A stretch of DNA of 63,843 nt, counting the filler, from Vermamoeba vermiformis (Eukaryota): assembly GCA_045837725.1 (NCBI GenBank). It is 8 parts of 8 records of this genome, joined end to end, with 100 filler letters (N's around TTAATTAATTAA, not from the genome) between each part and the next. Parts side by side here need not be neighbours in the genome. Positions count along the whole stretch, not along the records: positions 19,360 to 34,011 come from JBEWZL010000021.1; 7 more parts are not named here. One strand, given 5' to 3'. The translations under genes and the position numbers were made by a program. Below the pieces are notes generated by a model. The model was not told where the DNA came from. It did no database searches and saw nothing but the letters and a program-made list of their open reading frames with translations. Shown piece by piece: positions 599-46,424 of this stretch (the first letter of the stretch is position 1; each line of letters starts with the position of its first letter).

Positions 599-3500
599 TT
601 ACAAGTCAAACACTTTTGATTTTCGAATGTGTCTCGCGCTGCATCCAGTACAAATGAATTGTAAATGACCGCTTTTTGAGCAAGCAAGACAAATGAGAGT
701 TGTTTGTTGCCGCTTTGCTTTTGGACATAAGGTACAACGGCCACGAACTGTCTCTGAAAAATATTTTGAGGGCACTCCTACGTGCATTTGGTTAGTTGAG
801 TGCTCAATTCGTTGAATTTGCCATAGAATGACTCCTCGTCTACTTCGAATTCGATAAAGTTTGGAAGGTCTCTTCGGACTTCTCGACGGAACTTGTGCCA
901 ACTCTCGCGCAATCTTCTCTAAGTACTCGCGAAATATGCCATCATGTTTAGTGACTGCCTTGAAATAAATGAACGAATTCCAAGCTGTTATTGTAATTGT
1001 TGTAGCAAAGAGTGCTTGTGTCCATTTTAAGAATTTGTGAGGATACGCAAAAGTGTGAATTTGTCTCGCGGCCTCGTCAACAAATCCCTTTGCATAGGCA
1101 TACTCTTGAGCGCACAATGGCTTTGAAGCAGTACTTGGCTATTTAAAGAATGTTGGTACTTTAACTAAATAGTGTTGTGCTTACATTGACAGATTTGCTC
1201 GGGCTTGGTGTGGCAAAAATGTTCACTTTCGGGCAAAGTGGTTGCCAGGATCTACGATCTACATTGATTTAGCTAAAAATACTTGGCTCATTTTACGTAC
1301 CTGCGATATAGTTCGAGAACAGATTCATTATTGCCGATTTATCTTTGAAGGACGTAGCCGTAATTAAATTGAACTTTCCGTTGGTATAGTAGCTCTTTGC
1401 GCAATTCTCTTGTAAGTTTGTTTGTAGGTTATCGAACACGTAGGAGGGTGAGTTTTTCTTTGCCGACAACAAGAAGTATAGTCCTAGCTCATCTGATAAA
1501 CAAAGTCAGTAGGTGCAGTAGGAATGGCAGATTGTCGGTACCTAGTTTACGAGAGGCCTCTTCCGATCCCCATTTGCTATCTGTAGTCAAAATGTAACCG
1601 TCATTTCGAGCAGCTAACTTCTCGGCAACCTCAAGCAACTGGTATTTTGGAGGTAAACATAAACCAAGGTACACGTCAAGGTCCCACACAAAGTGTTGGC
1701 TGTCGGCAAGCAAATATAATAGTATTCCATTTGGATGTGGCTTAGTCGGAATATATTGCTGACAAAGCGTTAGATTGGTCGAAGTGTTCTGTAATTACAT
1801 ACCTTTGCAAAGAACTTCCCTAGAAACGGCGTAATCGTTTCATCAAAAGTTACGTGCTGATGAGGAGTCCAGTGTGCTTGATACTTTTTCTTCAGCGATG
1901 CTATTAGGCTATCAACATCGTAATGAAAATTCTTCCAAATGAGCTCGTATCTGCTGCTTGATATTCGGCTTGAAACCCACTCATTGCCGTAGAGTGGGTT
2001 GTTTTCAATCCAATTGTCGCGTACTCGTCTTCCTTTAACCACCGTAATAGCAATTGTGACACCAAGAAATGTTCGGAATTCGTCCAGAGTTAGAGGTTTT
2101 TTTCGCCATTGCTTTGCGCTGTTGTGCTGCCATATCTTCTCTTTGTCGGTCAAAGTGATAGGCGCATTATAGTGGTCGTAAAGCTTTTGTAAATTGCCTG
2201 TCCAAGTATTCGATTTTATCAATGCAGGATACTTCTGCTCCATTTGCTTTGCCCATGTTTGTGCTTTCAATAATTGGTCCCGTCGAATTCTGATTCTTCG
2301 TTGCTGCTTTTGGTCGTTTGACAGAATTGCAAATTCGTTCATTTCATCGACAAGTTGTTGTTGTAGTTCTCCTATTAAGGGTATCAATATAGTTAAGCAT
2401 TCGATTAAGTGGCAATAGGTATTACTTGTAAAAAACATCTCAAAAGCTTCCAACGCCGTGAGGCTTTTTGGCGCACCAACGGGACCGGGTTGCGGACAAG
2501 TATCACGGAAATATTTGAGCGTTGTCCGTGGAACCTTAGGTATGTCAGCAATCCACCCTTGTTGTAATAAGGCTCTGGAAGAGCGTAGGTAATTTGTCAG
2601 CTGCTTGTGGCAATTTGTGGACAGTTCGGATTTCAAAAACCAATTGAAGTGCATTGCGTCGCCGTTCCGCCACTCTAATAGCCACTCTCGCTCATTATTT
2701 TGATAGCGAAACATTATTACTTTGGATAAATTGTTAATGGAGAGCTTCTTTGACATCTTAGTTCGCGTGTACTTGCCACCATCAATTTCAATCGCTGGCG
2801 TCAATTCAATTTCTTTTTTGATTCGCTTCTTAGGTTTTGGCTTTACCACTGGTTCGTCTTCGATATCTTCATCCACGCTAATTTCACTTAATTGCATTAA
2901 ATCAATGGAATTTGAACTTTGCGATACCGGCTCCATCTCCATCGAATCCGAAGACAGCTCAACATAATCCAAGTGTGATATTTTTTGCCCTGTTCAAAGT
3001 TATTACCATACCAACAAAATCTCTGTGCGCAAACTTACTCTTCCTTGGCGGAGCGGCATTTTCTTCATTGCCTTCGTTCAGTTGTTGGGCAAACGGAAAA
3101 AACCTTGCCGCTTTTTCTTTGTTGATGTAAAACAGATGTTGGGCCGTTCTATATCCTCCTCTTATCTTTGCTAATTGAGCGGGAAACTTGACACGATTAA
3201 CGTGAGTATCGTTGTAGAGGATCCAATGCTGTCTAAGTTCTTCATTTATCAGCACTTCATAATGGCCAGAATTTTGAGAGTTGCCGGAATGAATTACTAC
3301 TGCAAATAACGTGTAGTTTGAACCGGCGACTGAAATATCAATGTCTATGTTGACATTTTGACGCGATTTGGTCCACTCGTTTGGTGAGGTTTCATTAAAG
3401 CGATGTAAATGTAGGTGAAGGATATCCGGCATTGAGACTAACTCATACAAATCAGTGCACTCCTAAACAAGTGTTACTAATCGGTCATAGCACGTGGGAC

Positions 3501-4486
3501 ATACTTTAACGCCGAGACCTGGTTCGGGTTCAAATTGAATTTGATGAGGAGCCGAGTATTGTGTGATGGACAATTGAATTGAACCTTCGGGTTTGATAAC
3601 GAGCTCTACCAATATTGGTTAAATTTCGGGTAGTGAATTAGTAGGACTTGCCTCTGACCTCGTCAACTTTATTGACCACTTGAATTCCATTGTATAAAAT
3701 TTTTCTTCTCTGTTGCATTACAAAGTAGTTGCCAAATTCACCCAGGTGCGGCATCAATGTCAGCATAAACTCGTGAAAGCAATCTTGCTGATTTTCTTTG
3801 ATTTTCCACACACGATGTTGCTCTAACGCAGCGGCAAAATCACGCAGATGGCTCTGTTGTTGTGCCAACGACGCAAAAACAGATTGTAGGGAGTCGACTA
3901 TCGCTTTGTTTGCTTCGTTGCCATCCTGCCGAAATGACAGATGCGCAAACTTCATTTTCCAAAGCAGAATAACGGCAACGTTTGCGTAGCACTTGGTTTT
4001 TGACGCGTTTTCTAATCCAAATCGGTAATAAGGCAGCTGGTATTTTTAATTAATTACTATTTTAAAATAGAGCGGTACTAGTACTAGCTTACATCAAATC
4101 CAAGTGCGCGTAGAGGATTCTTGCTTGTTGTGTGCGCCACATGCTTGTATCTAATTTATAATGAATAAATGCAGTATAAATGCTATTTTTTTGCTTACTT
4201 GAGCGCATCCTTAAATCGTGGCTGAAATTCGCCGAACTGCATCTCGCTACCGCCAAACAATTCACAAACATGAAATAAATCACGATCCGTTAGCCAACTC
4301 TCATCGTTTGAGTCGGTAACATGACACAACTGACTAAGAATTGGGGTGTAACCGCCAAAGCAGGAAACATCCGAGGCTGAACCGTAAAATAATTAGTAAA
4401 AATCCGGTAATCTAAAATTAGTAAATGGGGCGGTGGAACTTACCATTAAAGATGAAGCTGCAACTTAAAATACCTCGGGATTGCAT
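599..4486 (-). CDS. USP (peptidase C19) deubiquitinase - chromo-like - piggyBac-type transposase fusion protein, multi-exon (copy 1)
   Basis: USP motifs: Cys box GLENASKTKCYANVAV (~3970-4020), QQDCFHEF, LHLHLHRF, His box VVIHSGNSQNSGHY..WILYND. A 49-nt GT-AG intron (2990-3038) joins this in frame to ORF 1770-2972. piggyBac motifs: EFRTFLG, FDETITPFLG, KQYIPTKPHPNG, TTDSKWGS, YAYAKGFVDEA, and a C-terminal Cys-rich domain CTLC..CLAC..CTGC; stop at 599. The start at 4486 and one GC-AG intron (~3606-3651) are inferred. Confidence 0.85.
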
Positions 4487-19359: not shown

Positions 19360-19417
19360 GACTACTTTTATCTCCGTCACTGCACCGAGATTTGATCGCG
19401 TTTTGTTCGCGATCTTA

Positions 19418-19925
19418 AAGCCGCGCTGGAACGACGCTGAAAGTCGTTTGGCGCGTGTGTAATAACAATAAATTAACTATCTAAATAAACAAATCGACCC
19501 TTGTGGCCGATCTGTTGCGAATCCGAGATTCGCTACTGTCAATCCTCGAAATAACTCGCGCTGAACGGCCGTGTTGACCGTGGCGCGGCACTGTCTGCTG
19601 GTAATAAACAATAATAAATAAATGTAACGACCTTTGTGGTCGTTCTGTTGAATTACTGATGCGAAATAGCCCGTGCGCCATTTTCGCATCAGCTCTGATC
19701 CAAAATAGCTCGCGCTGGAACGGCTCTGACGCTGCGGCGCATTACTATCAGCTGTAATTACAACGTTGTAATACCAAAAAATAAATAAATCGACCCTTGT
19801 GGTCGATCTGTTAGCTAAAGTTTAAATCATGTCAAAACTGGCGCGTGCAATTTTGGAAATTCCAAATTATCCGCGCTGCAACGACGTTGGTGTCGCGGCA
19901 CGTAACTGCCAACTATAAAAAACAA
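19418..19925 (+). repeat. Array of ~135-160 bp structured repeats (ATCGACC-CTTGT-GGTCGAT hairpin plus CGCGC..GCGCG hairpin)
   Basis: Hairpin cores at ~19493, 19626 and 19790; companion (TAACT)CGCGCTG motifs at ~19422, 19552, 19707 and 19872. Confidence 0.85.
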
Positions 19926-20617
19926 TAAATCAACGCTCAATCGTCCGTTTTAGTTGACCTATTATGTTAACGATGACTTACCTCCTCGATCCGATCCAAT
20001 CAGCTGACGTCTTTTTAACTCTAGCGCTAAATTGAGCCTATTAGCAACAAATTAATTAATACCAATGAATTCAATCGTCAATTGACTGCGAGTAACGAGA
20101 ATCTCGTTAATCTCGCGGATTTAAGAATTGATCGGCGTTCGAATCTGACCTCGAACGCAACCAAAAATCAAATCGTTATTAAATCCTTTATTAGTACGTA
20201 CCTTGAATAATCTGAGAGCCATTAATTTGCCAAGATTCTTCAATGATCCGTCATTCCTAGTCGACGGATCGGCGCGACGATTTCTTGCTTTCTCCACCAC
20301 CAAGAATTTTGGCAATAATTTCGCGCGTTGTTTCTCGGCGGTCTGAAGCCAAAATAATAAATAAAAATTAATTGAGAGGTCTGGATCAAAATTTAAAGAT
20401 CCAGGGGCCCGTTGGCTCCCTCGGATCCCCGCGCTATTTATCGCTTACCTTGTCGCATTAACAAAATAATTAATATAGCCATATTAGCTCATTGTTTGAG
20501 CTATTGTTTCGCATTATCGCGAAATTGAACAGTGTTCGTTCGAGACAGTACTGTTCAATTTCGTTCCATTTTTTGCCATTAAATTCGGGGCGCCAAATTT
20601 TCCGGTTTTCCAGTCAT

Positions 20618-21543
20618 CAGGCGCCCCCCAGTGCTCCCCTAACCCTAAAATTTCGTGTCCGGTCTCTTCCCTCGCGTAAGTGAAGTCTTCCAGGACTGTC
20701 CCAGTGTACAAGCCATGGAAAACTAAAATAATTAATTAGTACACCATCAAATACAATTAAATTTACTTGCGTAGGTGAACATATAAAAGGATCGGAGCAA
20801 AAGTTCCGCGAGTACTTTGGGGATCTGGGTTGAATGTGCTATTTTGCCAGATCCCATTATCGTAGAAGAACTTCATTGTGCTCTTCACGTTCATGTCTCT
20901 GGATTCAGCTGTTAACACGTTAGTTAAATCGTGCTTTAACCGTAGCAGGAACTTACGATCTTTTTCTCGGCGCAACCGGCACCATTCTTGCACATCAACG
21001 ACAGTTTCACCAAGTCGGCGGCGCTTTGGTTGGCGCTCGTTGTCTGCCTGATCACTGCCACGCTTTCGGCGTGGGCGCTTTGGTGCATCTGTCAATTTAT
21101 TACTTACTAACATCGGCATTAATAAACTAACCAATACATACCACTACCCATTACTAGCTCCTCCTCATACAAGTTATCTTCAGTCGCAATACCTTCGTTG
21201 ACACTTAATTCTCTGGATTCAACTGCCAAAACTTAGCACAGAGTTTTAATTCGGTTTGGGCAACTTACCTTCATGTGACGATGATTTGTCAGTGCTAAAA
21301 CGATCTCGGTAAGTAATGGTGCTAATATTAACGTGTTTACTTACCTTTTAATCTGATCAGATTCACCGCTATCTTCATTTGAGGCGACACTTGCTCTGTA
21401 TTCAACGAATAAATAAAAAAAAGCAATAAAGAGCATTACTTACAATTCAATTCTCTCTCCATCGCTCGTAAAACTGGATGAACACTTAGCAACGACAAAA
21501 ATAATATCTAAATTAACCGAAATAAAAATAAAATGCATACCAT
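20618..21543 (-). CDS. Cluster gene D: hypothetical protein, acidic N-terminus and basic NLS-like patches
   Basis: ATG 21543-21541 is followed directly by an intron. Short exons splice in frame (MCSSSFTSDG..) into ORF 20763-21134 (PKRPRRKR, PKRRRL). Confidence 0.6.
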
Positions 21544-21868
21544 AATTCCGAGTCTATTGTGCGATTGTTATCTGTAATTAATAGCAATTATTAATGTTAT
21601 TGCCAAAGCTGCGCTAGATTTGATTTTTTGTAATGCAATAAAAATGTCACAAACAGCACAAAAAAGATTATTAAAACACTTACTTCTTTTATTATGAGCC
21701 ATTACAATAACTAACGGTCCGTGGTCACTTATTTGAAGTGATTGTTGCAATAAGTCAGGTTTTTTTCTGATCAAAAAAGTTCGCGTGTCGAGAACATCAC
21801 GCTATTGAAGGCCCACCACCACATTCCCACCTGCGAACTAATTTGCAGGCCCTTCAATGACGTTCAGG

Positions 21869-24800
21869 CTACTTGCCAAAGTATTGGCGATACTTCGATA
21901 CCCAAATCCCTTCATCCACGGGCAAGATCGGAGCGCGCCTTCCGGCTTGAGAGAATAACTGTGTGTCCAGCATATCTTCGATCTTCATGCCGTGGTACTT
22001 TATAGTAGCCTCGGGATTGGACTTGGTCAGGTGAAAGATGCAAACCGTGCGTAGTTCTGTCTTGTTCTTGCACTTCTGTACCAGCGGCGTTTGCTTGATT
22101 ACGTAGTCGATAATCTGACAACTCATTAGTAACGAAATGAGGTGAAATTGAACACCCACCTTAATTTTTGCTTCTAAGTCCAACATTGAGTCGCTTCTTA
22201 CTAGTATAGGCTGGCCTTCATCTCCGACAGTCATAATAGACGTAGGAGCAGCAAGCGTTGAAATGCGGACAAACTTGAAGATTCTAACGTCCGTGTCATT
22301 TTTGGGTGGTTTTCCCCAAAATGAATCGTTCGAGATGAGCGGGAACAACTTCAAACCAAGCTTCGCCAATAACTGCTCGATCTTCTTCTTCAAACCTCCG
22401 ACAGTGACAACAGCAGCAGCGGTGTTCTTGTTTGTCAAGTACTGAACGGTTTGAACTGCTTTTGTTTTTCCCACCTTAATGTTGTCGTTAAGCTGGGCTA
22501 TTACTTTCTTTTGCGCGAGTCGCCAGTGGTTGAAGTACTCGAGAGTAATCGGATAACGTTTGAAGCTGCGAGTGGCATCAGAAGGAAAGGCACTTTCACA
22601 CACACTCTCAAACGCGACAGTATCTCTAATTTTTACCTGTTGCAATAATTCGATTAATATTCATGCAAGTCGTGTGATAATACTTACAGTGCAGCCGGGG
22701 TGGCGAGTGTCGAACAAAGAGCGAAGCGCCTCACGTCCTCGACGCAAAGCATCGATAAATTGTTGCTTTTGTGTGGGACTACGGAAGCTGCCAGCGGTAC
22801 ATAGTGCAGCTAATAGCCCATTTACGAGATTGGCTGCAATAGTACCGCAAATCGACTTGTCTCGGGGAGTAACAAAGCCATCTTGAGGACGAAGACAAAG
22901 TCTAATTCTTGCACTAATGTCCATCATTTGTTCCTTATCTTTGACGTGTTGTGGGAACAGGCTGTGGAGAAATTTCGGAGGCAATGCAAGAATCAGGTCG
23001 TCTCCAGCCTGCAAGTCAGCAAGATCGGCCTCTTCAGCTTCACGGGCAGCGTCGTCAAGTGGTAACAGGCATTTAACTTGGTCGAAGTTGGAAGTAAATT
23101 CCACCAAGTCAGGCATGAAGTGTAGGCGACCATAAGTGAAGACGCTTTCTTTCAGTTTGTACCGGTTGAATAACTTTGGATGCGCTAATTGCAAGACCGC
23201 ACCGCTCCAGATAAATGTCAAGCAATCTTGAAGCAAAAAGGCGGCACGTAGCAAGTCGTCATTGTAATCCAGAGCGTCCAAATGGTGTGCTGATAATTTG
23301 TTAGTGTAAGACCTTAAATTGTGTTGTTGTATGCACCTTGGACGACATGATCCAAAAGGAGGTAGAAATACGTTCCAATGCTGTCGGTGAACTTCCGTGG
23401 GAATAAACACATCGTCTCGGTGAGCACAGTCTGAAGTGGGCTGCAGCGCATCATTTCTAACGGTATTAAGCCGCATTGATACAGAGCTTTCAACATATTG
23501 AATAGCTCAGTCAGCGTTTCCCCAAGCCTAGCCATTTCATGATACGCGTCAAGCAGTTGTTGCATAGTCGGATTTTGTAGAGTGATTTCAAGACGCGGTC
23601 CGTATGCCTTCTGAGGCATGATGGTTGAATAGTATTTTTCCGCTCGCTTCAACTCCTTTCGAGAATTAACGTCATTGATCTCTTCTTTAAGTCTAAGCAC
23701 ATTCATTAGGATACAATTAACAATAAATTATAATAATCAAACTTACCGAGAATGAAGTTTATCGGAGACTCTAACATCCGCTCCGATAAGTTGTTTGACT
23801 TTCTCAACCGGGAATGCTAGGACCGCATGATAAGAGTTCGAGAACGGAATTTGGTGTCGGAAATCCTCACTTCCTTTGTGATAAGCTTTGACACGCGCCA
23901 ACAACAAATGTTGTTTTGAGTACTCGATCATAGTACTGGTGCACGTGCCAATTCCAAAGTTGGGATATTCCGTGATTCTGCAGCAAGAGTAAGTTGAAAT
24001 TCGCTTAAGATTAACTACGCTTACTTAGGTTTTAAGTAGTCTTCGTCAAACTTGTTGCAACGAGCATGCTCAAAGATTGTTGTGTTGCGAGTCATTAGAC
24101 CTTTTAATGGCGAGTTGTGCATGTCAGCAAGAAGCGAGGTGAAGTTTCTGGTAAAGAACATTGTAACGTTGCTATCGTCCCCGCATCTGTACACAAAAGA
24201 ATTAGGACAAATGTCACGTGTCATAATGTCAATTCCTGACACGTGTCAAGAATTCTCAGATCACTTACTCTAAATCCAACCCAATATCTTGCATGAACAT
24301 CACTCTATTCCCTGGAGTGTGGTAGTAGACTTTGTCCATATCAAATAGATCGTTCAGCTTGTCGCTTAATTTGCTGATGTCATCGGCAGATGTTACTGGA
24401 TCTTTGCGGCCAAAGTGCTGGATGACAAATACTGGCTTGAATCTGTAAGCACGATTAGTATTTAATTAAATAATGGTGAAAAACCTTACTTGGGTTCTTT
24501 TTCGACAAGTTTTTTAATTCGGCGCTGAATGTGCCGAGTAGTTTCGGGTAAAATTCTTGTCGTTTCCCCTGGCCTTCTTTCTTCAGAGACTGCTACGAAG
24601 GGTAATGCGACTGGTGTGGTTCTGCCTTGTTCGGGAGCGTCTACAACACCTAATGGGAACAGTTAACAAGTTGAATTCAACGCTAAGTTTCCGTACCTTG
24701 ATATGCGCATTTCTCAAAAAACATTGTGATTGCTTCAACTGACCTTTCCCAAGGACAGTCCGGAAACACCGCAAATACGGGAATATTCCCGTCAACAAAT

Positions 24801-26109
24801 CTTGGCAATTAACATTAGTAAGTATCAGAATATGACTTCGAAAACTTACCCTATACCAATGCTGGGACAAGTGTGCAATGATTTGCCTTTGTAACGCATC
24901 TTGCAAGACTTTAAAAGGACATTGTGGTTCGGGCGAATTGACATTTCCCAAGAGCCACGAATAACCTTAAGGGTCTCACTGACGAAGCCGGTGAAGTCGA
25001 TATCCAAGCGAAAGCTTATTCTTGTATCTTTGGCTTCGGTGAAGTAGTAGTTGGGTCCATAGTAAGTGGTCGAAGTCAGCCAGTCAATGCTTTTGAAGTC
25101 ATCATCAAAATCTTCTTCTTCTTGAATAATTCTAGCACCTTCGATTAGGTGCTGCGTGAACAAATTCGTTTTCAAAGCCCCAACAGCCTGCGCATGACGA
25201 ATCTCGTCAAGCAAATTGACGTCGTAGACTGTGCGACCGTCATCGTCTTTTAAGTGATGTTCCCTAAGAAGTACTTCATTAATGACATGTACGACACGAT
25301 AACATTTACTTACTGGTCTAATTTTACCAGAAGCTGCATCTTTTCTTTTGTTGTCAGCGCATGGTAGTCTTTCCAGTTTGCGAGAATCGCTGCTGCACCA
25401 TCTCGTCGTAGCAACCGAAGCAACGAATAGTACTCGTCTGAAAGGGTTGCCGGGTCAACAGAAACTTCTTCTGAAGATGTCTCGAGTGGTGGCACGGGAT
25501 CGGCGCAAGCTGTTATAACATAAGTACCGTATTTAGCATTTTTTAACGAAAACCTTACCATCAGAATTGTACGAAATAGGTGACGAAGGAGGGGAACAAT
25601 CCGAAGACGAATAAGACCGCGGAGAAGATAATGGAGAAGGGGAACGAGACCTTGGAGATCGTGGAGATGGTGGGGATCGCGGAGAAGATAGTGGAGATCG
25701 CGGAGAAGACGGCGGAGACGGAGATCGTGGACGAGGACATGAACGTGAGGACAAAGGCGAGGGAGGTGTTCTAGGAGCCTTCCTTGAACCTAACTAATAG
25801 TTAAATCCAATGCGTCAGAAAAATAAAACAATAGTGCTTACGCTGGGACTTCGGCGTTACAAGCCAATCATTTACGTCCACTGAAGAGCCCAAAGACTCC
25901 TCATAGTTGGCGAGGTCTTCGTCAGTGGCTAGTTGCGTGGCTTCTTGGGTGAATTCTGAAAACGAGTCACCGGGGAAGTTATTCTCCTTTGAGTCAAGAT
26001 TGAAAGCAGAATGCAAAAGCTTATCAAATCTTTTTGTTGGAGAAAGAGCTTCTGTTTTTTTTATAAGTCAGTGTCCAGCGAAGCATTTATATATAAATGA
26101 ACTTACCAT
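21869..26109 (-). CDS. Cluster gene B: large multi-exon protein of unknown function
   Basis: Exons collinear with the homologue at 57941-61278: DIDFTGFVSETL, EYPNFG, KAYH, MPQKAYGPRLEITLQNP, YQCGLIPLEMMRCSP. SPR-rich N-terminus. ATG 26109-26107 followed by an intron. Confidence 0.8.
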
Positions 26110-26176
26110 CGATCGAGGAGTTGAGAAATTCGTTGTTGGTAATATCGCGAAGGCTAATGGAAGTCTACAAAATTGG

Positions 26177-28628
26177 TTAATGCAACCAATCAGGAAATTC
26201 ATCACTGTGTGCCTTAATATATCTAAATATGCGATTTGTAGATTCTAAATCAGGAAACACTCTCGTCAAGAACGAGAACGGTAAATCAGTAAATATTAAT
26301 TTCCTTTCGGTGCAGCAGATTTCGTAAAACTTTAGGATACGAAATTTCCATTTGCGAAAGAATTCTCGTCGGGCTGGAGAAGCGCTGGAAGGGCCTGTGT
26401 CTTTCCCGTCAAAGTCGTCGCTCATAGCAGCCGCCAACTTGGTCACATTGATTTTGCCCAGGATTTTAAACAACTTGTCGTTGACTTCGATCTCCACCGT
26501 CCTTAGGGCCATATTCGGTTTCTCCTCCATAATTTCGGTACGAAAGCCTCCACAGAGGGTGCTAACAATCCCACCAAGGTAGAATAGTTTCAACTTGGTG
26601 ATTACGTGAAGCCCCAGCTGAGTTTGAAAAAGTACTGACATTCCGTCTAAGCCATCGGTTAAATGCTGCACCAACGTGTCTCTTGCAACCAAACTAAGAC
26701 TGAGGTGTGACGAATTGAAAAATTTGACAGCCGCAGAGTCAGCTCCTTCTTTGACACCAGCCACATCAAGTTCCATCGAAGAGACGACCAAATCGTATGA
26801 AGACTGTGCAAATTCGCAATTACGGAGGCCAGAAAGTAGTTGACTGGAGGCACCTGCAGCAACAGGTAAGAAAGCTTCATAAAAAAGTTGCAAAACCCTT
26901 ACCGGATTCGTGTGTTATCAGGTCAGTTCCCGTCAGCTTTGGCTTGATCTTTACATCAGCCTTGACCTTATCTCGAAGAAGAAATTGCTTGTTTTCGTAA
27001 GTGAGTGCAACGATCATTGGGCGCTCGTTTGCATTTTCCACATCGATGCCAATCCCGTGAACGTGAAGTCTCTCCAGATGTTCTCGCAATGCAATGATAT
27101 ATCGATGAGTCCGCCTTGCAACAGAGTCGGGAGAGAGGTCTTTGTTGTCCAAAAACCGTTCTCTCCTTTCTAATTTTAGGAGTTGCTCTAAATAGAAATA
27201 CGTTAAAACCGGTATTACTATTTTTGGATTGTTTCGAAACTTACCTTCTCTTTTAGTTCTCTTGCTCTCGCGAGAGCTGTTTGACTTTGAACGATTGGAT
27301 TTTTTCTTTTTCTTCTTTTTTTTGTTCTTCGTATCTTTGGCATTGTTATCGCTCAAATCTGGCTCTGATTCTGGCTCATCTTCCTCGGAAAGGACGGTAC
27401 GGACATTTCTTGGAACATTCGCTTGTGTATCACTTAATAGCTCTGAAAATGGTCAGTGATAAATAAAGGAAGACTGCATAATAGCTTACCAGGGGAGGTT
27501 TCGTGATCGGCTGATTTTTCTTCTTCACTTCGATTTGTATTGTTTTGGTCTTCAAATGAGATGAATCAATAAATAAACATTAAGCCAAGGTAAATACTTA
27601 CTCTCACTGAGGACCGACTCTGGATCCGGCTCACTTTTTTCTCTTTCATTATCGTCAATTTCCTCTTTGTCCTCGTCCTCTTCGTCGTCCTCTTCGTCCT
27701 CCTCTTCGTCTTCTTCTTCTTCTTCCTCCTCCTCTTCATCTTTGTTTTGGTCGTAGTCTTCGTCGGTGGGAGGAGGGACATCTTCGGAGTTATCAATAAA
27801 GGCAATGTCGTCGGCATTTGGCTCTTCATGCTGGTTCAAATCATTCCAATCTTCTATCATGCCACGTACCGATGTAAGAGATATTTTCTTGGTTCCTTCT
27901 GGGACGTCATCTTCGACGTCACTTTCGGCTTTCTCACAAGAAAGTTGCGAGGTCTTCTCCTTGGTTTTTGTCTTTGTTTTCGTGACTATCACCTCTGTGG
28001 CCTCACCGTCTTCATCAGAGAGATCAATATCGCTAAAATCTGCATCGATGTCAGAAAACAAGAGTAAAATTTTGCTTAGGCAAATTCTAAGTACCTTTAG
28101 GTTCGTGAGTAGCGGCTCGCCGAGGCATAACTCTTGTTTTTGCACTCTAATATAGATGGGTTAGTCATATTTTGGCGCGAATTGGTCTGTCATTAGCTTA
28201 CCTCAGTACTGTTGTTCCGTGAGCCTTTGGCCAACTTTTTCGGCGGTGAATTATTCGATTCCAAAGCCTTCTGAGGCGACGACTTGTTGGATATTGACTT
28301 CTTGGGCGAGGACTTCTTGGGCGAGGACTTCTTGGGTGAGGACTTCTTGGGTGAGGACTTCTTGGGCGAGGACTTCTTGGGCGGGGGATTCTTCGAGGAT
28401 TTCTTTGGCGACTTCTTGGATGATAGGTCGCTTGAAGCAGATTTTTTTGACACTTTGGGGGATTGTTGCTTCGACCCAGAAGCAACAGTGCTGGAGCGCG
28501 AAGGAGACGTTCGAGAGCGAGTTGCGACACCGGGAAAGAACATGCCCTTAACAGCAGCCATACAATCCAAGCCCGACTAAGTGATTGAATTTAGTGCGAT
28601 ATGATTGCCAAAGCAAAAAACTTACCAT
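26177..28628 (-). CDS. Cluster gene A: protein with KKSSP repeats, acidic tract and conserved C-terminal domain
   Basis: ATG 28628-28626 then intron; KKSSP repeats; D/E tract. C-terminus KLKLFYLGG..RREFFRKWKFRI..DEFP matches 57062-57922 (KLKAYYVGG..KRDFFRQWKCRI..DEFP). Confidence 0.75.
28297..28381 (-). repeat. 15-bp coding tandem repeat encoding KKSSP
   Basis: GACTTCTTGGG(C/T)GAG repeated about 6 times on the plus strand. Confidence 0.9.
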
Positions 28629-28769
28629 TGTTGCAAGTACGAGAAGTTGATGAGTTACGTTTCGATTCTGAATAAGTAACAATTAACTTAAAATCGCGCT
28701 GGCTTTAAAAAGAGCGGGCTTACACACTATTGGTCAAATAAACATTTTTTTTCTATATCTTTTAAACAA

Positions 28770-31352
28770 TCACACACTAAACTTGATAAATTCCTCTCGC
28801 AGCAAATCAATGGCCTTCTCGTCTTCTATGTATATGACTTTGGCTCTTCTTGGTAGGACCCTGCGTTGAACTGGCGTCAATTGCTTTGAGGGTGGGATGA
28901 TAGCAGGATAGAAAAAGGGTCCAAAGCTGTCAAGCGGGAGGTCTCTGCGGGGTCGTTCATGAACTTGCGCTAACAATTCGTCGTTCCATTCATAAGAAAA
29001 TAGGCTTGGAGGATAAACGTTTTGCGGAGTAATAGCTCGCGGATGGAAGCGAAACCTGCGTAAGAAAATAAGTATCTTTGCGCAAAAACTTTGAGAGTTA
29101 ACTTACGGGCGATGAGCTAAGATATGCTTCATGATACTGATGGTATTATCGATGCCGTATCCTCCTAGATATAGGCGTGGCCCCGTCGTGTTGAGAGAGA
29201 CATTGCGCGGATCCACCTCCTCGAAGAAATCAAGAGGAGATATAAATATATTGACCAGGCAGAGGTGACGTAATGCAAGCTGGTTTAAACCACGCAAGTC
29301 TACGTATACACCTGGACAGTGCGATTCAAGCTCTAGCAGGTGAAATTCGGCAGGAAAGTTTACACCACGCAAAGATATTTCCCAGGCCCTTGTTGATTTG
29401 TCTTCTCTGGGAATTGGCAGACGCAACCCAACCAATCGCGGAGAAGCTGCAAAAATCTTGTTGATCACGGCAACAGTTGTGGCTCCCATCGTGTTGTACA
29501 GATCAAGTTCTTGCCCAAGAGCAAGATGGAAGTGAAGAAAGCGCAGGTGCCTCCACTCGTGACTGGCAAATCCATACGACACTAATTGAGTTCTAATGTC
29601 GACGATAGCCAGGGCTTGAAGAGAAGCGACACAAGCCGGAAACATCTTTGCGGCAACAGGAGGATCAACATCCTCAAAGCGGAGTTCGAGCAATTGACCG
29701 AAACTGGGAAGTGTTAGTTTAACGTACCAGTAAAAATTAATTATTTACTTACAAGGCACTCGCAGAATTGTTCATTGACTCGCCTGTCGGATCCAAGCTC
29801 ACTCGGGTCAGGTAGCAACCACGACACGCTGTCGAATCAATAGGGTGGATCGCACCAAAGTCGGAAAGGCGAATGATACAATCTTCAACTTCTAAAACCG
29901 AATACACGTGGTTGTTAACGGTTTGGTAGACGTGCCTTGGATCGTTGACAATGTTGATGGCATTAACCGGCTTGGGCTTAGTTTTCGGTGGGATGGCACC
30001 TTCATTAAGCAGAATGTTAGAAAGATGTAAAATAAATTAAGGACTTCATACTTAATTGTATTGGCTTGCCAACAGGTTCCTTGTCAGGAACTGTTAGAAC
30101 TTCAAGTGTTTCGGGTTCACTGTCTTGGATCGGTGAAGCAACGTAAGTCGATGATTCCTGTACCACTAGATTAATCATGGTAAAAATAATTTTAAATTAC
30201 TTACCGGCATTTCTTGTGCCGGGCTGGAAATTGAGGATGGGCTGATAGGGCTACTAGGGCTGGAATGTGACGCCTGAGAATGATGGGGGCTGGCATGGAC
30301 TTCGAAGAGATCAATCGAATTTGAAACTTCTTCGCCCGCCGAGACAAAACTTTGCTTCTCTTGGGGTACTTCGACGCGAGCTTTCTTCGTGATGGTTTGT
30401 GCCAATTCCTCTCCCTTTCTCTTAGGCGGTGGTACGTAGGACATGAATACAGGAGGTCGCAATTCGAGTGCTGGAAGATGAAACGCCTCGTAGCCAAATC
30501 CGTTGATATTCGGCAGGAAGTCTACCTCGGTGAATTTATTGGCATCAGGAATTTCGGTCGTAGCGCCATCAGTGCCTAACAACATATTAGAACGCCGTAT
30601 TAAAATCGCTATTGTACTAGCCGTTACTTACCTTTACTTTCGAATTTGGTTTCCTTTGCTGTGTATTGCGAGAACAAAGGGACATCATAGCGACAATTTT
30701 CGGTTGAAATGACCGCCAAAAGGGATTCCAAGGACTTGGTGGAAGTCCAGTGACCGTAGTGGTAACGCATCGCACACCAGAGTTTTGCGTGCTCGGTGTG
30801 GGTCACGTCTCCGCCTTCCGCGCGACTGGCGCCCTTAGTCATGTTGGGAATGATTACGTTGTCTCGGGCTGACCGCAATATCTCGGGAAACGTGCGCATG
30901 AACTTGACGAATCTCTGCCAGGCGACGGATGCGAGGCTAATGCCGAGGTGTTGAGCTATGGCAGCGCTGTACGACTTATACCAGCGAGGGTACACCATTG
31001 TGCGCTCTGGACGGGGGGCTAGCATTCCGTGGAAGTCAAAAACAACGTAGTAGAAGAGGAAATCCGCTCGGCTGCTGAACATGAAGTATTCCAAGCTATC
31101 GTGGAGTTTCTGCACGTAAGCATTGAAATCTCCTCCAGGCACTGACCGGTTTCTAGCTAGTACAAGGAACTCTACAAAGGTCACGATGTTCTGTTTCACA
31201 TCCGGTGACTTTTTGTTATTCTGTAAATAATAAAGTATTAGTATATAGTTATAACGATTTAATATATAAATACACGAAATAATATTCGGGCTTATTACAT
31301 TCGTGTGCACAGTAATAGTAATAAATAAAATTTTTAAAACAGATTTTACCAT
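28770..31352 (-). CDS. Cluster gene C: hypothetical multi-exon protein, C-terminal part leucine-rich-repeat-like
   Basis: ATG 31352-31350, intron 31349-31221, then NNKKSPDVKQ.. ORFs 30624, 30175, 29103 and 28770 are linked by short introns. LxxLxL patterns in 29103-29693. Confidence 0.6.
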
Positions 31353-31708
31353 TTCAGATTTAATTGCAACAAGAAGGATATAATATATATTATATATACT
31401 ACGGTAATTCGTAGTATAGATAATATTACAAGCGGATTTAAGCTCTTTTGGAGACTCAAATCCGGATTTGCAAGTACGAGCAGCTTTTGGCCGCAAGGAA
31501 ATTACTAACGAAGTCTTGTGGACTCGCAAGCAATTAAAAAAATAGGTGCGGATCACTTGTGGTGACGCACGTTATTTTTAAATTGGAATACTTGCAACAG
31601 GAACGCGAGATTTTGCGCACATGTGACTTGAAATTCCCAACACGTGGTCGTCACGTGTCATGCCAAAAAAAGATCTTTTCCAAAACAGGAATTAAAGTCA
31701 AAACTTTG

Positions 31709-32005
31709 ACAGAACGACCACCACCGGTCGATTTATTTATTTATTGTTAATGTAGTCAACTGATAGTAACGCGCCGCGGCATCAAAGCCGCTCCAGCGCG
31801 AGTTATTTCGGATTCAGCCGATGCGTGAAGTTCGCATGCGTCAGCATGCATTTAAGCTCAACAGCGCGACCACAAGGGTCTTATTTGCATTGATTATACA
31901 GCCGACAGTAACGCGCCACGGTCGCCAGCGCCGTTCAGCGCGAGTTATTTGGATTGAAGCTGATGCGACTTTAGATGACGCATCAGTTCTACTCAAAGGG
32001 TCAAT
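31709..32005 (-). repeat. Inverted copy of the structured repeat array at 19418-19925
   Basis: CGACCACAAGGGTC (31867) and CAGCGCGAGTTATTT (31794, 31936) are reverse complements of the left-array motifs. Confidence 0.85.
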
Positions 32006-32237
32006 TTATATACCAGCATAATGGATCAACTGTGAATTTTGGTAAGTGCACTAGATAATTGTTTGATCCAGGATTTGGATTTGAACGAATAAATTAATTT
32101 AAATAAATTAAACGTTAATACAGACAATAACTAACGATTTTATTAGGTTTTGCATGGAAATAGATCACGATCCCGACTGTTCGCGCGCGCAATTCTGTAA
32201 TTCGGTAATAAATAAATAAATTTTAGTAACTGGCACA

Positions 32238-32623
32238 GTATTTTTTAGGAGATCGTCTCCGCGCTGGAGACGACCTTTACGGACTTGGTTTTTTTAGGAG
32301 ATCGTCTCCACGCTGGAGACGACCTTTACAGACTTGGTTTTTTTTCGCAGATCGTCTCCACGCTGGAGACGACCTTTACGGACTTCGGTTTTTTTTGGAG
32401 ATCGTCTCCACGCTGGAGACGACCTTTACAAACTTAGTTTTTTTCGCAGATCGTCTCCGTGCTGGAGACGACCTTTACGGACTTGGTTTTTTTAGGAGAT
32501 CGTCTCCGCGCTGGAGACGACCTTTACGAACTTAGTATTTTTTAGGAGATCGTCTCCGCGCTGGAGACGACCCTTACAGACTTAGTATTTTTCACCGATC
32601 GTCTCTGCGCTGGAGACGACCCC
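32238..32623. repeat. Minisatellite, 8 x ~50 bp, each with TCGTCTCC(A/G)-CGC-TGGAGACGA hairpin
   Basis: GATCGTCTC at ~32251, 32300, 32350, 32400, 32449, 32498, 32548 and 32597; units near-identical. Confidence 0.95.
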
Positions 32624-32796
32624 TGGGTACATTGGGCTTTATTGCAGGTTGTGTTGGATGTGAGTGTGGGTTTGGGTACGGGATTACCTAAGCAAAATTT
32701 TGCTTAAGTAAAATTCTACCCGGACTTTTGTTTATTTCTGTAACTTTTTAAGGCTAGCCCTATATGGCCAGGCCCTTTTACATATATGAATTGAAG

Positions 32797-33060
32797 ACCA
32801 TCCGAAGTTCGGATGCCCATGTGGAAGAATATCAGCTATGAAAGTTACATAGCTGCTTTTTGACCATCCGAAGTTCGGATGGCTGTGGGAGATCCATGGC
32901 TAAAATGCAAAGCGGTTCACACCATCCGAATTTCGGATGCCTGTAACAATCTTGGCAATGGATTTTCATGGCTATTTTACACCATCCGAATTTCGGATGC
33001 CCTGACAATCTTAGCTATCAGGTTTTCATAGCTGCTTTTTGACCATCCAAAGTTCGGATG
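32797..33060. repeat. Five copies of the 17-bp palindrome CATCCGAAnTTCGGATG at ~60-bp spacing
   Basis: Copies at ~32799, 32865, 32923, 32983 and 33044 (last has one mismatch); spacers are diverged but related. Confidence 0.92.
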
Positions 33061-33114
33061 CTTTGACTGAGTACAAACTTCTACTAAATCATTTATTTTA
33101 CGTCATACAAGCAG

Positions 33115-33767
33115 GGACTCTTCACCCCTCAACCTTTAACCTTAACCCCAAAGGTATATTAATTGGCGACAAAATCTTCCTTGCCGATCTGACACTTTCA
33201 GACCCGAAAAATTCCGATAATACGATTAAAATCCATCCAGGAAGCACCATTAAAACAAGAATAGGGCGGGTAGATACAGACAACTTAATCGTATATGGAA
33301 TTGTCTCGTCTAATCTCGGAAAAAAGCTGTCACTGTTCGTCAATTCTTCAGATCACCCAAAAGACCAATTTCCCTACGCTGTGGATGTTGACTCAGTTGT
33401 AGAAGTTCGCGAAAATGCCACGTGGGATGCTGCTGCTTCTGACACTTGGTTAGAATCCTTACAAAAAGAGAGCAGTCAGAGTTCCAATCTGCACCATGGT
33501 GGATCCTCGCATCACACAACATCCCGACACACCATATCAGGACTTAGTGCACATGAAATAACACAGTTAGTGCAGGCAATTGTGACGCCCATCATGTCAG
33601 ATTTTGCGAAGCAATTCCGCGCTGTCATCGCCGAAATTCACGAAAAGGATGAAAACCACCAAAAAATGATCTTGGAAGAATTTAAATCATTGTGGGCTCA
33701 AAATTCAAAAATGATGGTAGATTTGTTAGCACTGGCAACGGAACGGAATCGAACGAACGATAAATAG
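33115..33767 (+). CDS. Hypothetical protein, terminal exon (upstream exons probably near 32154 and 32648)
   Basis: Long open frame after a CAG acceptor at 33114, helical C-terminus, AATAAA at ~33849; 5' structure uncertain. Confidence 0.5.
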
Positions 33768-34011
33768 GATTTATTTGTGTATTTTGTGAAGAAGATATTT
33801 CCGAGAGATTTCCTTGTAGCGACTATCGTCGCACCCTTGTATTTTATTAAATAAATCTACCCTTTCAACCAGCGAACACAGTCCTCAGTTTGGGTCATCA
33901 ACTCAACCCAGCTAAATCAAAATCTTAATATAACAATTTATCGTAAATAAATAATCTTTACTCGATCAATACATTGACTAGTAAATTACACGTTTTTGTC
34001 TATGTCTTTCC

Positions 34012-38300: not shown

Positions 38301-41036
38301 AACACTACGTGTCACAGAGCTTGACTGTTACTTACTTATGATGAATGACATAATTGAACATATTGAAAAAACAACAGATGCAAATCTGCACATCAAAGCA
38401 GTCGATTTGCGCGCTTATCTTGGTGTTAGAATTGCACAACAATTATCGCCAGGTCATTCTGTTGATGACTCTTGGGCCTCCTTTTTGCATTCACGCGCCA
38501 TGTGGGGCAACAGGTGGATTGCTAAAACAATGCTAAAAGATGAATTCAAGTTTATACACCGGAACAAAAAGTAAGTTCGTTGTTCACTCACTGTAATGGT
38601 TCTTACCTTTGGTCTTAGGTATGATGTGTACTTTGTTTGGGCAGCTCTGAATCAAACCTACTCAGAAATATGGGTGCCATTCAGCCACCTTGCTTTAGAT
38701 GATAAAGCAAATGCTTGGAAAGGAAGGTCAATTTACAAGATTTACAGATTACGCAAGCCATTCCCTTGGGCAATGTTAGAATATGTCATTATTGATGAAA
38801 GTGGATGGATGTCTGGCTTCATTCCTCGATATGGACTGTTTGCTACCATAACAGACAAGTTCAAGAAATGGCGAGAGTTATATCACGCCTTCAAAACAGG
38901 TCAACTTTCGCAAAGACCTCTACCATTTAAAACAATGTTTCCACGAGCATCAAAGACAAATTTCGATTTGGAAAAAGCCGTCAGTTTTTTATTGTCAAGA
39001 CTCCCTGACAAACAAAGGCACGTTTATGACTTTATTAGAGAACCCACAAATTATGAAGAATGGAACAATCTGACAACTCGAAACTTATCACACTATCATG
39101 TATTTTGTGACAGAGAGTTTTCCTCACTATGGCAGCACCTGCAAAAGCACAATATTGGATACACTGTTGGCATTATTGGAACATCACACCCTAACCTGTT
39201 TCAAAACAACCTTGCTCATTGTTTACAGCCAGGACAATGGCGCAGCTTAACAAACGACTCAGATATCATCATGTCATTCTATGACCCTCAAGGCAAGACC
39301 TGTCACTGGGCTAGTAATCGAGGAACAGCAGCCTCAATTTCTGAAAAAGTAATTGATGGAAACAAAAAGAAAAAGCTTGCATACTCTGCTCCCCACTTGG
39401 TGCAACAATATCGGACATACTTCAGTTCTGTGGATAAGCATAACTCCAAAGCCAAGAAGTTTAAGTGGCCCTACCGGATTCGAAAAGTAACAGAGCGCTT
39501 AGTATTTGCAGATTGGGAGCGCTCTGCTCAAGTTCAGGCAGAAACACTCTTCAAAAGACTCACCAACAGTGATATTCCTGCCAAGAAATTTCTTGCCAAT
39601 TTAGCGCGCTCCCTGGTAGAGGAATTCCAATCAAAAAGGAAACGAAACTACACAATAGAAGCGTTAGATCTTGTGCGCGCCAGTGGAAAGCATAATCCAT
39701 ACACCCACACCTGTGCGTACGAATTTGGCAACTCCAAGCGTTGTTTCTTTTGTCAAACTCAAAAGATATCTTCTTCTACACTGTAAGTATGTGTAGGTGT
39801 ACTTTTGTCAAACTAATTAATTGCCTTAGCTACAAGTGCATTCAGTGCAAAGTTGCCTTACACAAGAAGTGCTGGAAGAAATTCAAAGGTGTAAATCTTT
39901 AAGTTTTGTACAAGGAGTTATCAGTTAACTATTGTGTGAATAGCATGTAACACGTTGTGGTGTAGCATGAGCACGAAAGTGCCTGAGGCGGCTTTGACGC
40001 AAAAAACCTCGTGTGTAGGCACTGAGAGTTTGGGGATAGTCAGCTTGCTTCAGATTTATTCACATAATCACCTGCTAGGCTAACTGTTAGTAGCATGTAA
40101 CACGTTGTGGTGTAGCATGAGCACGAAAGTGCCTGAGGCAGCTTTGACGCAAAAAACCTCGTGTGTAGGCACTGAGAGTTTGGGGATAGTCAGTTTGCTT
40201 CAGATTTACTCAACAGACGATAGCCTGGGCTACTATTGAGCTTATTTATGAGAAATGGGAGCAGCCATGTCCAAATTCTGGTACGTCTACCGTGTAGACT
40301 TCCAGTTGGTTAAGGAATATATTCAATAATACTTAACTATGCAATATTTTTTGCTCGGAAACTGGATCTAACAGATTTTTTTACTAATCGTGTTAGGTTG
40401 TGGCTTCGATTACATTTGGTATAGGTGCCGCATTTGCGATATTAATGGCGATTAATATTTCTCGGAATATTGCGCCACGCTATCAAAGAACTGCTTGGGC
40501 GAGTTACGTAGCGATCTGCTACATCTTTTTGACTGATTATTTCCACGGCAAAACGCACGGAATTTTGCGCCCCGACGACTATATCGTACGTATATAATAT
40601 GATTTGGTATGAATGCGTGCTAATGATGATTTTTTAGGGCTTAATCATTGTCGAAATTTTCTTCCACATCGGAGTTACTGCAGCAGCATTCATTTTGATC
40701 TATTATCAGCGAAAAGTAATTAAAGCTGCTTGGGTGAAGCGTCAGAGTACGTACTTTCGTTTCTTACTAAATTTTTGTCCACGGTGGATCCGCACGTTGC
40801 AACTTCTGGATCTACCTATCTAATGATTTAAAGTCATATTTAATAGCATATACTAACAATAGCCGACATCTTCTTAATATTTTAGCATTTGCGAGTGTTT
40901 CAATTGCACATGTACTAATGGATTTGTTTCACGAACCATAGAGCGCGATGTCGTTGGCACATCCGTCACACTTTCCACTTCTGCGGGTGGAAATCAATCT
41001 TCGAGCACTAGGCGTGATGAAGAAGCCGAAAAATAA
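35378..41036 (+). CDS. Polytopic His-rich membrane protein, paralogue A (first exon not located; intron 36355-40396 holds a transposon gene)
   Basis: Exon-by-exon similarity to 41333-44619: EAAVTGVGLAFL, WFPHAQLH, EMTFHW, DYFHGKTH, FFHIG. Confidence 0.8.
36965..39902 (+). CDS. USP deubiquitinase - piggyBac-type transposase fusion protein (copy 2)
   Basis: USP motifs: VVNLGATCYISSSLQ, HRDLQEFL, LVLHLKRF, IIVHQGTAKQGHY..WLELND, AYILVY. Introns 37326-37377, 37440-37488, ~37759-37801, 38097-38143, 38571-38618 and 39783-39829 keep one frame. Transposase motifs: DLRAYLG, LALDDKANAWKGR, VFCDREFSS, YRTYFSSVDKHN, and CFFC..CIQCKVALHKKC; TAA at 39900-39902. Confidence 0.9.
39941..40212 (+). repeat. 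Two ~122-bp direct repeats (period 150) downstream of the transposase
   Basis: 39941-40062 and 40091-40212 are nearly identical (about three mismatches seen). Confidence 0.95.
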
Positions 41037-44861: not shown

Positions 44862-45206
44862 TTCCGTTAACAGAGGAAATCAATCGTGGATCCGTCTGCT
44901 GATAACGAGAATTTCCACACTTCTTTAAATCTTAAAATTAGCTGAATCCTATATAATTAAGTAGTAATTAATTAGTAGGCTATTTAAACATTGAATATGG
45001 AATATTATTAATAATTTTTTGCGGATTTTGCTCTGTACGTACAGACTCATCTTTGATCCCGTAATTTATTTCGGTATTATAATGATTATTATGAGTCTAC
45101 AACGGGACAAGAAGTCACATATGTGTGCTAATGCTGCTTTGCAAAAAATCTACTGTTCAAAGTCCGTTCTGAAGCAACACCACACGTACTTTTTTATAAA
45201 AATATA

Positions 45207-46424
45207 ATGGAACGTGATATAAAAAAGCCAGTGGATAATTTGGTAAATGAGCTACGCTTGTTGATTCTGTCGTACTGCGATTTTCAGAGCGCCATCCGCT
45301 TAATGCAAACAAGTAAGAGTGCTCTTAATCAATATGATAAAATTAATAAAATTTTATTAAATAGCCAAGGCGTGGTACGAATGCTCGAAGATAACTCACG
45401 TTTGGAAACAGATTTACTTAAGCACTTTTGCTGAATTCAATCCAAAACCGGTATGTGAAGCAAGTAAACATCATACTAAATTTCTAACGGTGCTGGAAGT
45501 ATTTTATATTAATATGCTGTTTAGGAGAGCAAAGACTGGAAAGAAGAGATCAAAATGAAAATTAATATGTACGGTCTTGATTTTGAAAAGTTCAGACGTA
45601 AGTAATAGAACTAAGCGAATAGTTATATATGAAAGGCCCGTATTAATCAATCAGCACAGATCTGCTTGGCAACGTTAAAATTTCGTTCAATATCGATCCG
45701 CCGATTGACTTGAAAGAAAAAGCCAATCATCTTCATAGAACGCTGAAATTAGAAGTCAACGGTAATTTATTACCTTGCATGGGTTATTTTGGGCCCACCG
45801 ACGTTTGCTTCGGGTACGTACTGAATTTAAAAAAAAACGACGGATCAGACCAACCTGTTCACAAAGTCGAATAGCAATATATTAATATGGTCTATTTAGT
45901 GATTGGATTAGAGAGGTCTTTGAGCCACTATTTGAAACCTTTGATTTGGTAAGTCTCTCAGATCGCTACAAGTTTTTTCCGTTAATAATGCCTCTATGCT
46001 TGGCAAATTTATTCTATTATTAGCACCAATAATAATACTAATAAATTAATATATAGGGCAATACTAGTCACTCTTGGGATTTTTGCGATCAAGGCATGCC
46101 CGCGTTTGATTTTGTCAAAGAAGGTCAGATCTGCAAGCTTTCGATCGTTGAAGGTACGACGAGTACATGATGATATTACAATAATATTATTATGCGATAG
46201 TAATGTAATTATTTTAAGGTATTTGTAGCAGCGGGGCAGATCAGGAGTGGCAAGATTGGCAAAACGTTGAATTTTTAATCGAAGATTTAAGAGCAGAGTA
46301 CATTAAATTCTTGGAAGAATTGTACGAAGAACTTATTTCCAAATATGGAGATGTTGGACAAGCGTTCTGGGACTCTTTGAAAATCAAGCAAGGCAAAAAG
46401 AACAAAAAGAAAAAAAGAACGTAA
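45207..46424 (+). CDS. F-box protein, tandem paralogue 1
   Basis: VDNLVNELRLLILSYCDFQSAIRLMQTSKAW F-box pattern; shared exons FNPKP, LPCMGYFG, WDFCDQGMP, NVEFLIEDLRAEY. Confidence 0.8.

Follow-up and report, generated by a model that had tools for sequence, protein, structure and literature searches.

Genes and repeats at the locus

The window analysed is a stretch of 63,843 nt from Vermamoeba vermiformis (assembly GCA_045837725.1), in which eight contigs are joined through N44-TTAATTAATTAA-N44 spacers; contig 3 spans positions 19360-34011, contig 6 51570-55766 and contig 7 55867-61412. Contig 3 carries a block of orphan genes with arrays of hairpin-forming units on both sides of it, contig 6 ends in a flank related to the start of contig 3, and contig 7 holds a diverged paralogue of a contig 3 gene (Table 1). 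A Pfam scan of nine contig 3 ORFs returned no family at E ≤ 0.01, with no transposase and no viral family among the results. The contig 7 and contig 3 proteins share 34% identity over 200 aa (E 2e-40). The domain of the contig 3 protein has two close relatives among 5.8 billion proteins and 20 representatives among 1.84 billion; ten longer relatives gave no Pfam family and the six looked up carried no name, no usable match was found in the Atlas, and the AF2 model of the domain (pLDDT 72) had no PDB match in Foldseek at E ≤ 0.001.

Several smaller features accompany these genes. A small ORF (20763-21143, minus strand) separates the large orphan genes from the hairpin flank; it has two basic, NLS-like runs and is probably split by a 47 nt intron. 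The exon that follows it (approximately 20450-20718) contains three stems of 8-9 bp. One contig 3 gene includes coding 15 nt repeats, Pro/Lys/Ser-rich, and a long acidic run (28253-28402 and 27667-27751); the apparent breaks in RNA reads at 27295-27334 and 27659-27751 arise from these repeats having been skipped in read mapping. Outside the right array, a 220 aa orphan ORF (33105-33764, plus strand) has no Pfam family and just two relatives, 70% and 73% identical, among 5.8 billion proteins; its summed DNA depth is around seven times that of unique sequence, hence it is probably multi-copy. Two further tandem arrays lie nearby. The first (32241-32691) has at least seven copies of a unit of around 50 nt, a T-run followed by an 8-10 bp hairpin (GATCGTCTCC..GGAGACGACC), in which one plus-strand A.C mismatch is kept in seven of the nine copies seen; its summed DNA depth reaches 4-5 times the level of unique parts. 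The second (32790-33063) has a period of around 60 nt, alternates the hairpins CATCCGAA..TTCGGATG and AGCTATG..CATAGCT, and runs into the start of a plus-strand ORF at 33015.

Elsewhere in the window are a fragment of an AMP deaminase gene, whose closest Atlas cluster is mostly arthropod (a weak hint), a ubiquitin hydrolase fragment, and piggyBac-type transposase fragments (DDE_Tnp_1_7) at 1773-2993 (minus strand, E 3.5e-13) and 38575-39783 (plus strand, E 3.8e-11). These last two have weak mutual similarity, and the one on contig 1 adjoins the ubiquitin hydrolase fragment. Contig 5 (44862-51469) has a hairpin density of 1.36 per kb, against approximately 0.6 in shuffles, and an intron-like form at six of its ten plus-strand GTAAG sites; no similarity to contigs 3, 6 or 7 was detected in it.

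Table 1. Features of the hairpin-bearing flanks and adjoining genes, as positions in the window
Feature	Position	Strand	Basis or remark
Outer conserved segment, contig 3	19360-19407	-	CCGAGATTT..CGCG with hairpin GATCGCG..CGCGATC; homologous to 54990-55042 (alignment); contig 3 ends here
Left array, U1-U4	19408-19967	-	Model R1, E 1e-16 to 3e-21; U4 3e-9
U1	19408-19520	-	Model R1
U2	19543-19653	-	Model R1
U3	19697-19816	-	Model R1
U4	19858-19967	-	Model R1
Left-array spacer hairpins	19517-19533; 19656-19692	-	P ≤ 0.013
Mini-exon, 56 nt	19982-20037	-	Followed by GTAAGT donor, GT 19981-19980 (ACTTAC at 19976); inferred splice sites
Predicted intron, 164 nt, with hairpin block 20095-20184	20038-20201	-	Block alignment score 45
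Predicted exon, 141 nt, with hairpin 20245-20270	20202-20342	-	Homologue of 55509-55645
Predicted intron with GGGG/CCCC hairpin	20343-20448	-	Donor GT 20448-20447
Orphan protein-coding genes, contig 3	20763-31571	-	No Pfam family
Right inverted array	31704-31986	+	blastn E 2e-34 on opposite strand; model R1
U8	31704-31814	+	Model R1
U7	31856-31956	+	Model R1
Right-array spacer hairpin	31960-31986	+	Stem search
GTAAGT donor just outside right array	32042-32047	+	Predicted; only strong donor there
Mini-exon array, contig 6	51570-54989	-	Predicted; exons ~63-108 nt, introns ~49-68 nt; GTAAGT, CTAAC-like branch, AG
Homologue of flank, contig 6	54990-55766	-	Alignments, model R1
Outer segment, contig 6	54990-55042	-	Alignment with contig 3 start
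U5	55043-55155	-	Model R1
U6	55177-55287	-	Model R1
Hairpin, contig 6	55300-55331	-	Stem search
Predicted intron with block 55406-55499	55354-55508	-	Inferred splice sites
Predicted exon with hairpin 55544-55572	55509-55645	-	Homologue of 20202-20342
Predicted intron, contig 6	55646-55748	-
Diverged paralogue of contig 3 gene, contig 7	55867-61412	+	tblastx, collinear with contig 3 28420 to 22682 (minus strand)

Homology between the flanks of contigs 3 and 6

A preliminary description had held the non-coding start of contig 3 to be collinear with the end of contig 6, and pairwise alignment of three segments bore this out for 19360-20470 and 54990-55766. The blastn alignment of 19417-19646 with 55052-55280 (E 5e-35) has 232 columns, 75% of them identical. 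The conserved block at 20095-20184, equivalent to 55406-55499, had a local alignment score of 45, compared with 20.4 ± 2.4 (maximum 30) in 200 shuffles, whilst the global score of 20185-20470 against 55500-55766 was 35.5, compared with 9.1 ± 3.0 (maximum 22.5) in 500 shuffles and 10.5 ± 3.4 (maximum 20.5) for 24 windows of contig 6 used as natural controls; local alignment alone of these two segments was not significant beyond the block. The similarity extends to the very first bases of contig 3, which ends 48 nt beyond its outermost unit. Descent of the two flanks from a common sequence is supported by these alignments.

The individual landmarks that had been described were all recovered, none more than 1-2 nt from the positions first given. 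The CCGAGATTT..CGCG motif is present at 19386 and 55021, and the GAGAAT..ATCTCGCGG motif marks the conserved block common to both flanks. The first predicted donors on the minus strand correspond in position (GT at 20201-20200 and 55508-55507), as do the second (20448 and 55748). Between them, the exon hairpin has its arms at 20245-20252 and 20263-20270 in contig 3 and at 55544-55553 and 55563-55572 in contig 6, and the intron hairpin pairs GGGG at 20404-20407 with CCCC at 20427-20430, equivalent to 55704-55707 and 55717-55720. The fold z score of the contig 3 exon is approximately -2.4 (computed on 20211-20350). The flanks differ in that contig 3 has four units and an extra 56 nt mini-exon, which is without a counterpart in contig 6, where there are two units and a partial one.

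A family of structured units

The repeats in the flanks were modelled by building a covariance model, R1, from seven aligned units folded on both strands, with which the window was searched with filters off. Eight units were found in the 63.8 kb, both strands included, confined to three arrays beside this locus family; nothing else scored E < 0.2. One of these arrays (31704-31956), absent from the preliminary description, lies in inverted orientation beyond the contig 3 genes, which are therefore bracketed by inverted arrays. The feature is real, and larger than first noted.

Units are 100-120 nt long and spaced at 133-163 nt. In the sense of the model, each consists of a 9 bp hairpin (B), a U-rich linker, a YAG motif and a GC stem (A) with a variable hairpin inside it. 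Six of the eight units have an identical hairpin B loop, and a YAG follows the U-rich tract in six of eight when read off the alignment in this sense. The spacers between units contain hairpins of unrelated sequence, with a perfect stem of 7-11 bp in four out of seven (P ≤ 0.014 each), and comparison of these with the rest of the window revealed no match beyond chance words of 9-13 nt. Within contig 6, the segment 54707-54760 has a degenerate stem resembling hairpin B (CGACCA..TGGTCG) followed by AGATCTCGCGG, scoring 14.5 bits against the model (E 0.7); it resembles a unit core fused to the block motif.

More generally, stems of at least 8 bp occur at 3.6 and 5.9 per kb in the two contig 3 flanks and 2.6 per kb in contig 6, compared with 0.3-1.4 per kb in other contigs and coding stretches and approximately 0.1-0.6 per kb in shuffles.

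Predicted introns and short exons

Contig 6 has 21 GTAAG sites on its minus strand, and each one leads into an AT-rich stretch of 49-108 nt with a branch-like motif and AG, whilst shuffled sequences had a mean of 0.77 such intron-like sites and a maximum of five. Sixteen of the 21 predicted introns are 49-68 nt long, and their form matches that of a bona fide 51 nt intron in the AMP deaminase gene (GTAAGC...CTAAC...AG); the features expected of a spliceosomal intron, namely GTAAGY, a CTAAC-like branch and AG within around 50-60 nt, are thus present in the sequence. The complementary word ACTTAC occurs 19 times on the plus strand of contig 6, at 4.5 per kb, compared with 0.15-1.4 per kb in contigs having any; contigs 7 and 8 have none. 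These contig 6 introns look genuine on this evidence. A reading of the plus strand as a set of U1-like small RNA genes was dropped, since the branch and acceptor signals fit minus-strand introns.

No continuous open frame was found across the ten consecutive contig 6 exons tested (54292 to 52900). With acceptors placed heuristically, stops block every frame in four of them, and the chain of frames is interrupted between exons 53856-53758 and 53698-53619. The exons appear to be non-coding and are moderately hairpin-rich, with similar moderate fold z scores on both strands (-0.94 and -1.10, mean approximately -1). The repeat units of this array are barely alike, one pair reaching 68.6%, whilst their splice signals are intact; hence the splice signals seem to have been kept as the exon sequence drifted. 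Similar short exons are found in contig 3, from approximately 21700 down to 19982. The donor outside the right array is oriented with respect to its units just as those on the left are, so that, if the flanks are transcribed, the direction would be outward from the genes on both sides, as judged from two independent cases only.

The mini-exon array of contig 6 had originally been taken as the continuation of the contig 3 flank, placing the protein genes and a putative non-coding RNA array in one element family. The homology of the flanks, the structured repeats and the minus-strand intron signals support this in part; the association with the protein genes is plausible, given the collinearity of the contig 7 and contig 3 proteins and the inverted third array beyond the contig 3 genes.

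Pairing and compensatory change

Across the eight units, 91.3% of 149 cells are paired, compared with 29-43% in slid controls. Double changes were seen in five of 19 pairs, and the covariation score of 0.246, against 0.158 in shuffles, was reached by none of 500 shuffles; as the alignment was fitted to the model and the eight units are related, such shuffle tests overstate independence. Comparisons between orthologous units (U1/U5, U2/U7 and U3/U8) each contain 0-1 double changes, as against 2-4 pairs lost in one copy, and their paired columns are 82-89% identical compared with 65-72% for unpaired columns. The original proposal that stems change sequence and keep their pairing applies to the exon hairpin, where a C-G pair has become T-A and a T-A pair A-T within a stem that is still paired, and to a lesser degree to the units, whose orthologous stems have for the most part kept their sequence. 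With few double changes, and loss of a pair in one copy just as frequent, compensation is real but modest, resting on a handful of events.

Wobble pairs were examined with respect to strand. The modelled sense contains 18 G.U and three A.C cells, the structure having been picked on that strand; over the core helices that both strands share, the counts are six and two. An unbiased scan of near-perfect stems in the three flanks gave G.U:A.C ratios of 7:4, 12:12 and 2:9.

Relationships between arrays and copies in DNA

The best partner of each unit is located in another array (U1-U5 70.8%, U2-U7 76.0%, U3-U8 78.2%), whereas neighbouring units of the same array are only 57-70% alike. The identity matrix thus differs from that of a satellite or homogenised tandem repeat, in which units of the same array are most alike, and TRF detected no period of around 140 on contig 6. 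The arrays therefore appear to be old, to have been copied as arrays and not to have been homogenised since. Exon and intron sequence next to the units can hardly be aligned between contigs 3 and 6; together with the identity of the paired columns and the 34% identity of the proteins, this suggests that the units are under constraint. Were contig 6 to form one locus with the reverse complement of contig 7, the units, at approximately 75% identity, would be far better kept than the proteins.

Summed DNA depth, which is not equivalent to copy number, is approximately 10,100 in 19360-19848 against 573 in the unique region 22294-25227 (around 18-fold), with 2,400-4,200 in the other hairpin arrays. 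Contigs from the DNA run also link units in other ways; for example, two join 19811 to 20088, and 19812 is joined back to 19538. The raised depth and alternative joints indicate further, differently arranged copies of the units in the DNA run. Such rearranged copies, and the inverted layout, fit repetitive DNA equally well.

Searches of RNA data and known families

Three RNA runs with the same species label, from other samples, yielded four, five and two partial reads, 11 in total from approximately 39 million records. Most of these cover the 33 nt hairpin core 19779-19811 only and have flanks unlike contig 3; all five from run X5 are on this core, and one from run X4 lies in 20338-20826. Some member of the family is present in RNA at trace level, and the reads are uninformative on the expression of contig 3, its genes included.

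Rfam 15, with its tandem-repeat ribozymes, snoRNAs, snRNAs and miRNAs, had no match at the gathering score anywhere in the window; in E-value mode the best hits were of 20.3 bits (gathering 48) and 18.1 bits (gathering 57.6). ARAGORN found no tRNAs in the window. Matches to the hairpin B pattern, one each in IMG/VR and JGI metagenomes, were treated as chance, as they lie in GC-rich, coding-like sequence from which the unit is absent (model R1 E 0.09 and no match, respectively). A viral origin was not supported: IMG/VR yielded no related locus, and phage records had no tblastn match to ORF 22664-23506. As searched, no Rfam, Pfam, phage-record, IMG/VR or PDB family explains the feature, and nothing comparable to the array was found in the literature searched, which is not proof of its being unpublished. 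The invariant PSEA core, as given in PMC1761439, occurs at 31633-31640, upstream of U8; however, the pattern has ten occurrences in the window where chance alone predicts 17.5, which makes it uninformative, and an snRNA-type promoter was discarded.

Discussion

We tentatively favour, with something short of even confidence, the interpretation of these flanks as a constrained hairpin-repeat module that forms part of a spliced non-coding transcription unit at a lineage-specific, multi-copy locus. The flank would be an old and selectively maintained module of this gene locus, comprising an array of units, each with two conserved hairpins, the variable spacer hairpins, the intronic hairpin block, and short non-coding exons separated by canonical introns of 50-60 nt. 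Transcription would be by Pol II, the sense strand being minus for contig 6 and the left flank of contig 3 and plus for the right flank of contig 3, and would produce an intron-rich non-coding RNA heading away from the protein genes. As structured elements, the hairpin units might offer an RNA-binding factor a series of docking sites or, alternatively, serve as processing or alternative 3' splice-site signals.

Two kinds of known transcript share features with such a module. The Xist A-repeat, the roX stem-loops and the NORAD units are tandem, diverged units of spliced Pol II non-coding RNAs that combine a hairpin with single-stranded motifs. The units described here are likewise individually diverged, each keeping a small hairpin and short single-stranded motifs, but they have no sequence relation to these RNAs, any transcription of them is putative, and they occur in several copies, inverted around a gene locus. 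In snoRNA host genes of the UHG/GAS5 type, many short, poorly conserved non-coding exons are bounded by well-kept splice sites. The short non-coding exons here, and the one longer intron with a conserved structured block, are similar; however, the AT-rich introns of 49-68 nt are too short to hold a snoRNA, and no box C/D or H/ACA RNA was evident across the introns, the best Rfam snoRNA score falling well below its gathering threshold.

Second in probability, and in our judgement unlikely though not negligible, is a foldback-type mobile or duplicative element of around 12.6 kb, in which the arrays would be long inverted terminal or subterminal DNA repeats with the orphan genes as cargo, and the hairpins would be relevant to single-stranded DNA or to a recombinase and not at the RNA level. 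Foldback-type DNA transposons such as Drosophila FB and Galileo have long inverted arms of tandem subrepeats of approximately 130-155 bp, varying in number between copies, around a central coding part. Contig 3 resembles these in its central genes and in its inverted arrays, putative terminal repeats in which units follow the same outer-to-inner order (U2 and U3 against U7 and U8), in the spacing of its units, close to that of foldback subrepeats, and in its variable repeat number; yet the central genes carry host-type introns and gave no transposase or other Pfam domain among the nine ORFs tested. The summed depth over the left array and the alternative joints of units in the DNA run are both in keeping with a mobile repeat, whereas arms only 73-78% alike, and a paralogous protein as diverged as that of contig 7, would be old for an active element. 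Both contigs 3 and 6 break in or near arrays, and other, unrelated hairpin tandem arrays adjoin, as might be expected of such an element; these same breaks leave no termini or target-site duplications definable, and the homology of contig 6 continues on both sides of its array, the outer side being 3.4 kb of predicted spliced mini-exons and not unrelated DNA. The wobble pairs, lacking a strand bias in the unbiased scan, accord with a role in DNA.

Neutral repetitive DNA, with palindromes generated by replication template switching or arm-to-arm conversion and the likeness of units reflecting recent gene conversion, we regard as improbable. Template switching is reported to give rise to hairpins, and to preserve them, with changes that look compensatory (PMC8794818). 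The flanks also hold hairpins of many unrelated sequences, and double changes are few; the 11 partial reads from other samples, moreover, provide no RNA support for a functional product. Against this, units keep their individual identities across arrays with no homogenisation, their single-stranded motifs and the hairpin B loop are conserved as well as the stems, and identity drops sharply outside the units and the block.

Improbable to a similar degree is a more far-reaching form of the interpretation we favour, in which the units would constitute a new class of small structured RNAs or RNA-protein docking modules arrayed in an intron-rich host transcript. Each would comprise two hairpins around a U-rich tract and a variable hairpin, the host would conserve its splice sites only, and the units would be tied genetically to a fast-evolving orphan gene family whose locus they bracket on both sides, making this a eukaryotic array of repeats plus variable hairpins with a host gene of its own. 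Lastly, it is very improbable that exons 20202-20342 and 55509-55645 are the protein-coding terminal exons of a small gene with incidental hairpins, as whilst minus-strand open frames of 107 and 116 codons cover both, with 35% identity over 51 residues in a single BLASTP comparison (E 0.002), the similarity crosses the predicted donor uninterrupted, as nucleotide conservation would, the predicted lengths of 141 and 137 nt do not differ by a multiple of three, the two exons have perfect stems, of 8 and 10 bp, at the same place, and the contig 6 exons include those closed in every frame.

The palindrome arrays between genes are also reminiscent of the hrs of large arthropod DNA viruses, which are arrays of imperfect palindromes scattered among genes whose function is unknown. 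Here, however, spliceosomal introns occur throughout, the protein tested has no IMG/VR or phage relative, and no viral Pfam family was found.

Whether a non-coding module or a foldback-type repeat, the arrays account for the break in the short-read assembly at this locus. If the units are foldback-type repeats, they would define a large, non-canonical element carrying intron-containing orphan genes, which bears on how lineage-specific gene families are duplicated. If instead, as we tentatively favour, the units act as RNA, they would represent an undescribed structured non-coding family, for which a covariance model is ready, flanking a lineage-specific gene family, and their host would offer an exceptionally clear example of a transcript that conserves its splice signals whilst its exon sequence is free to change.
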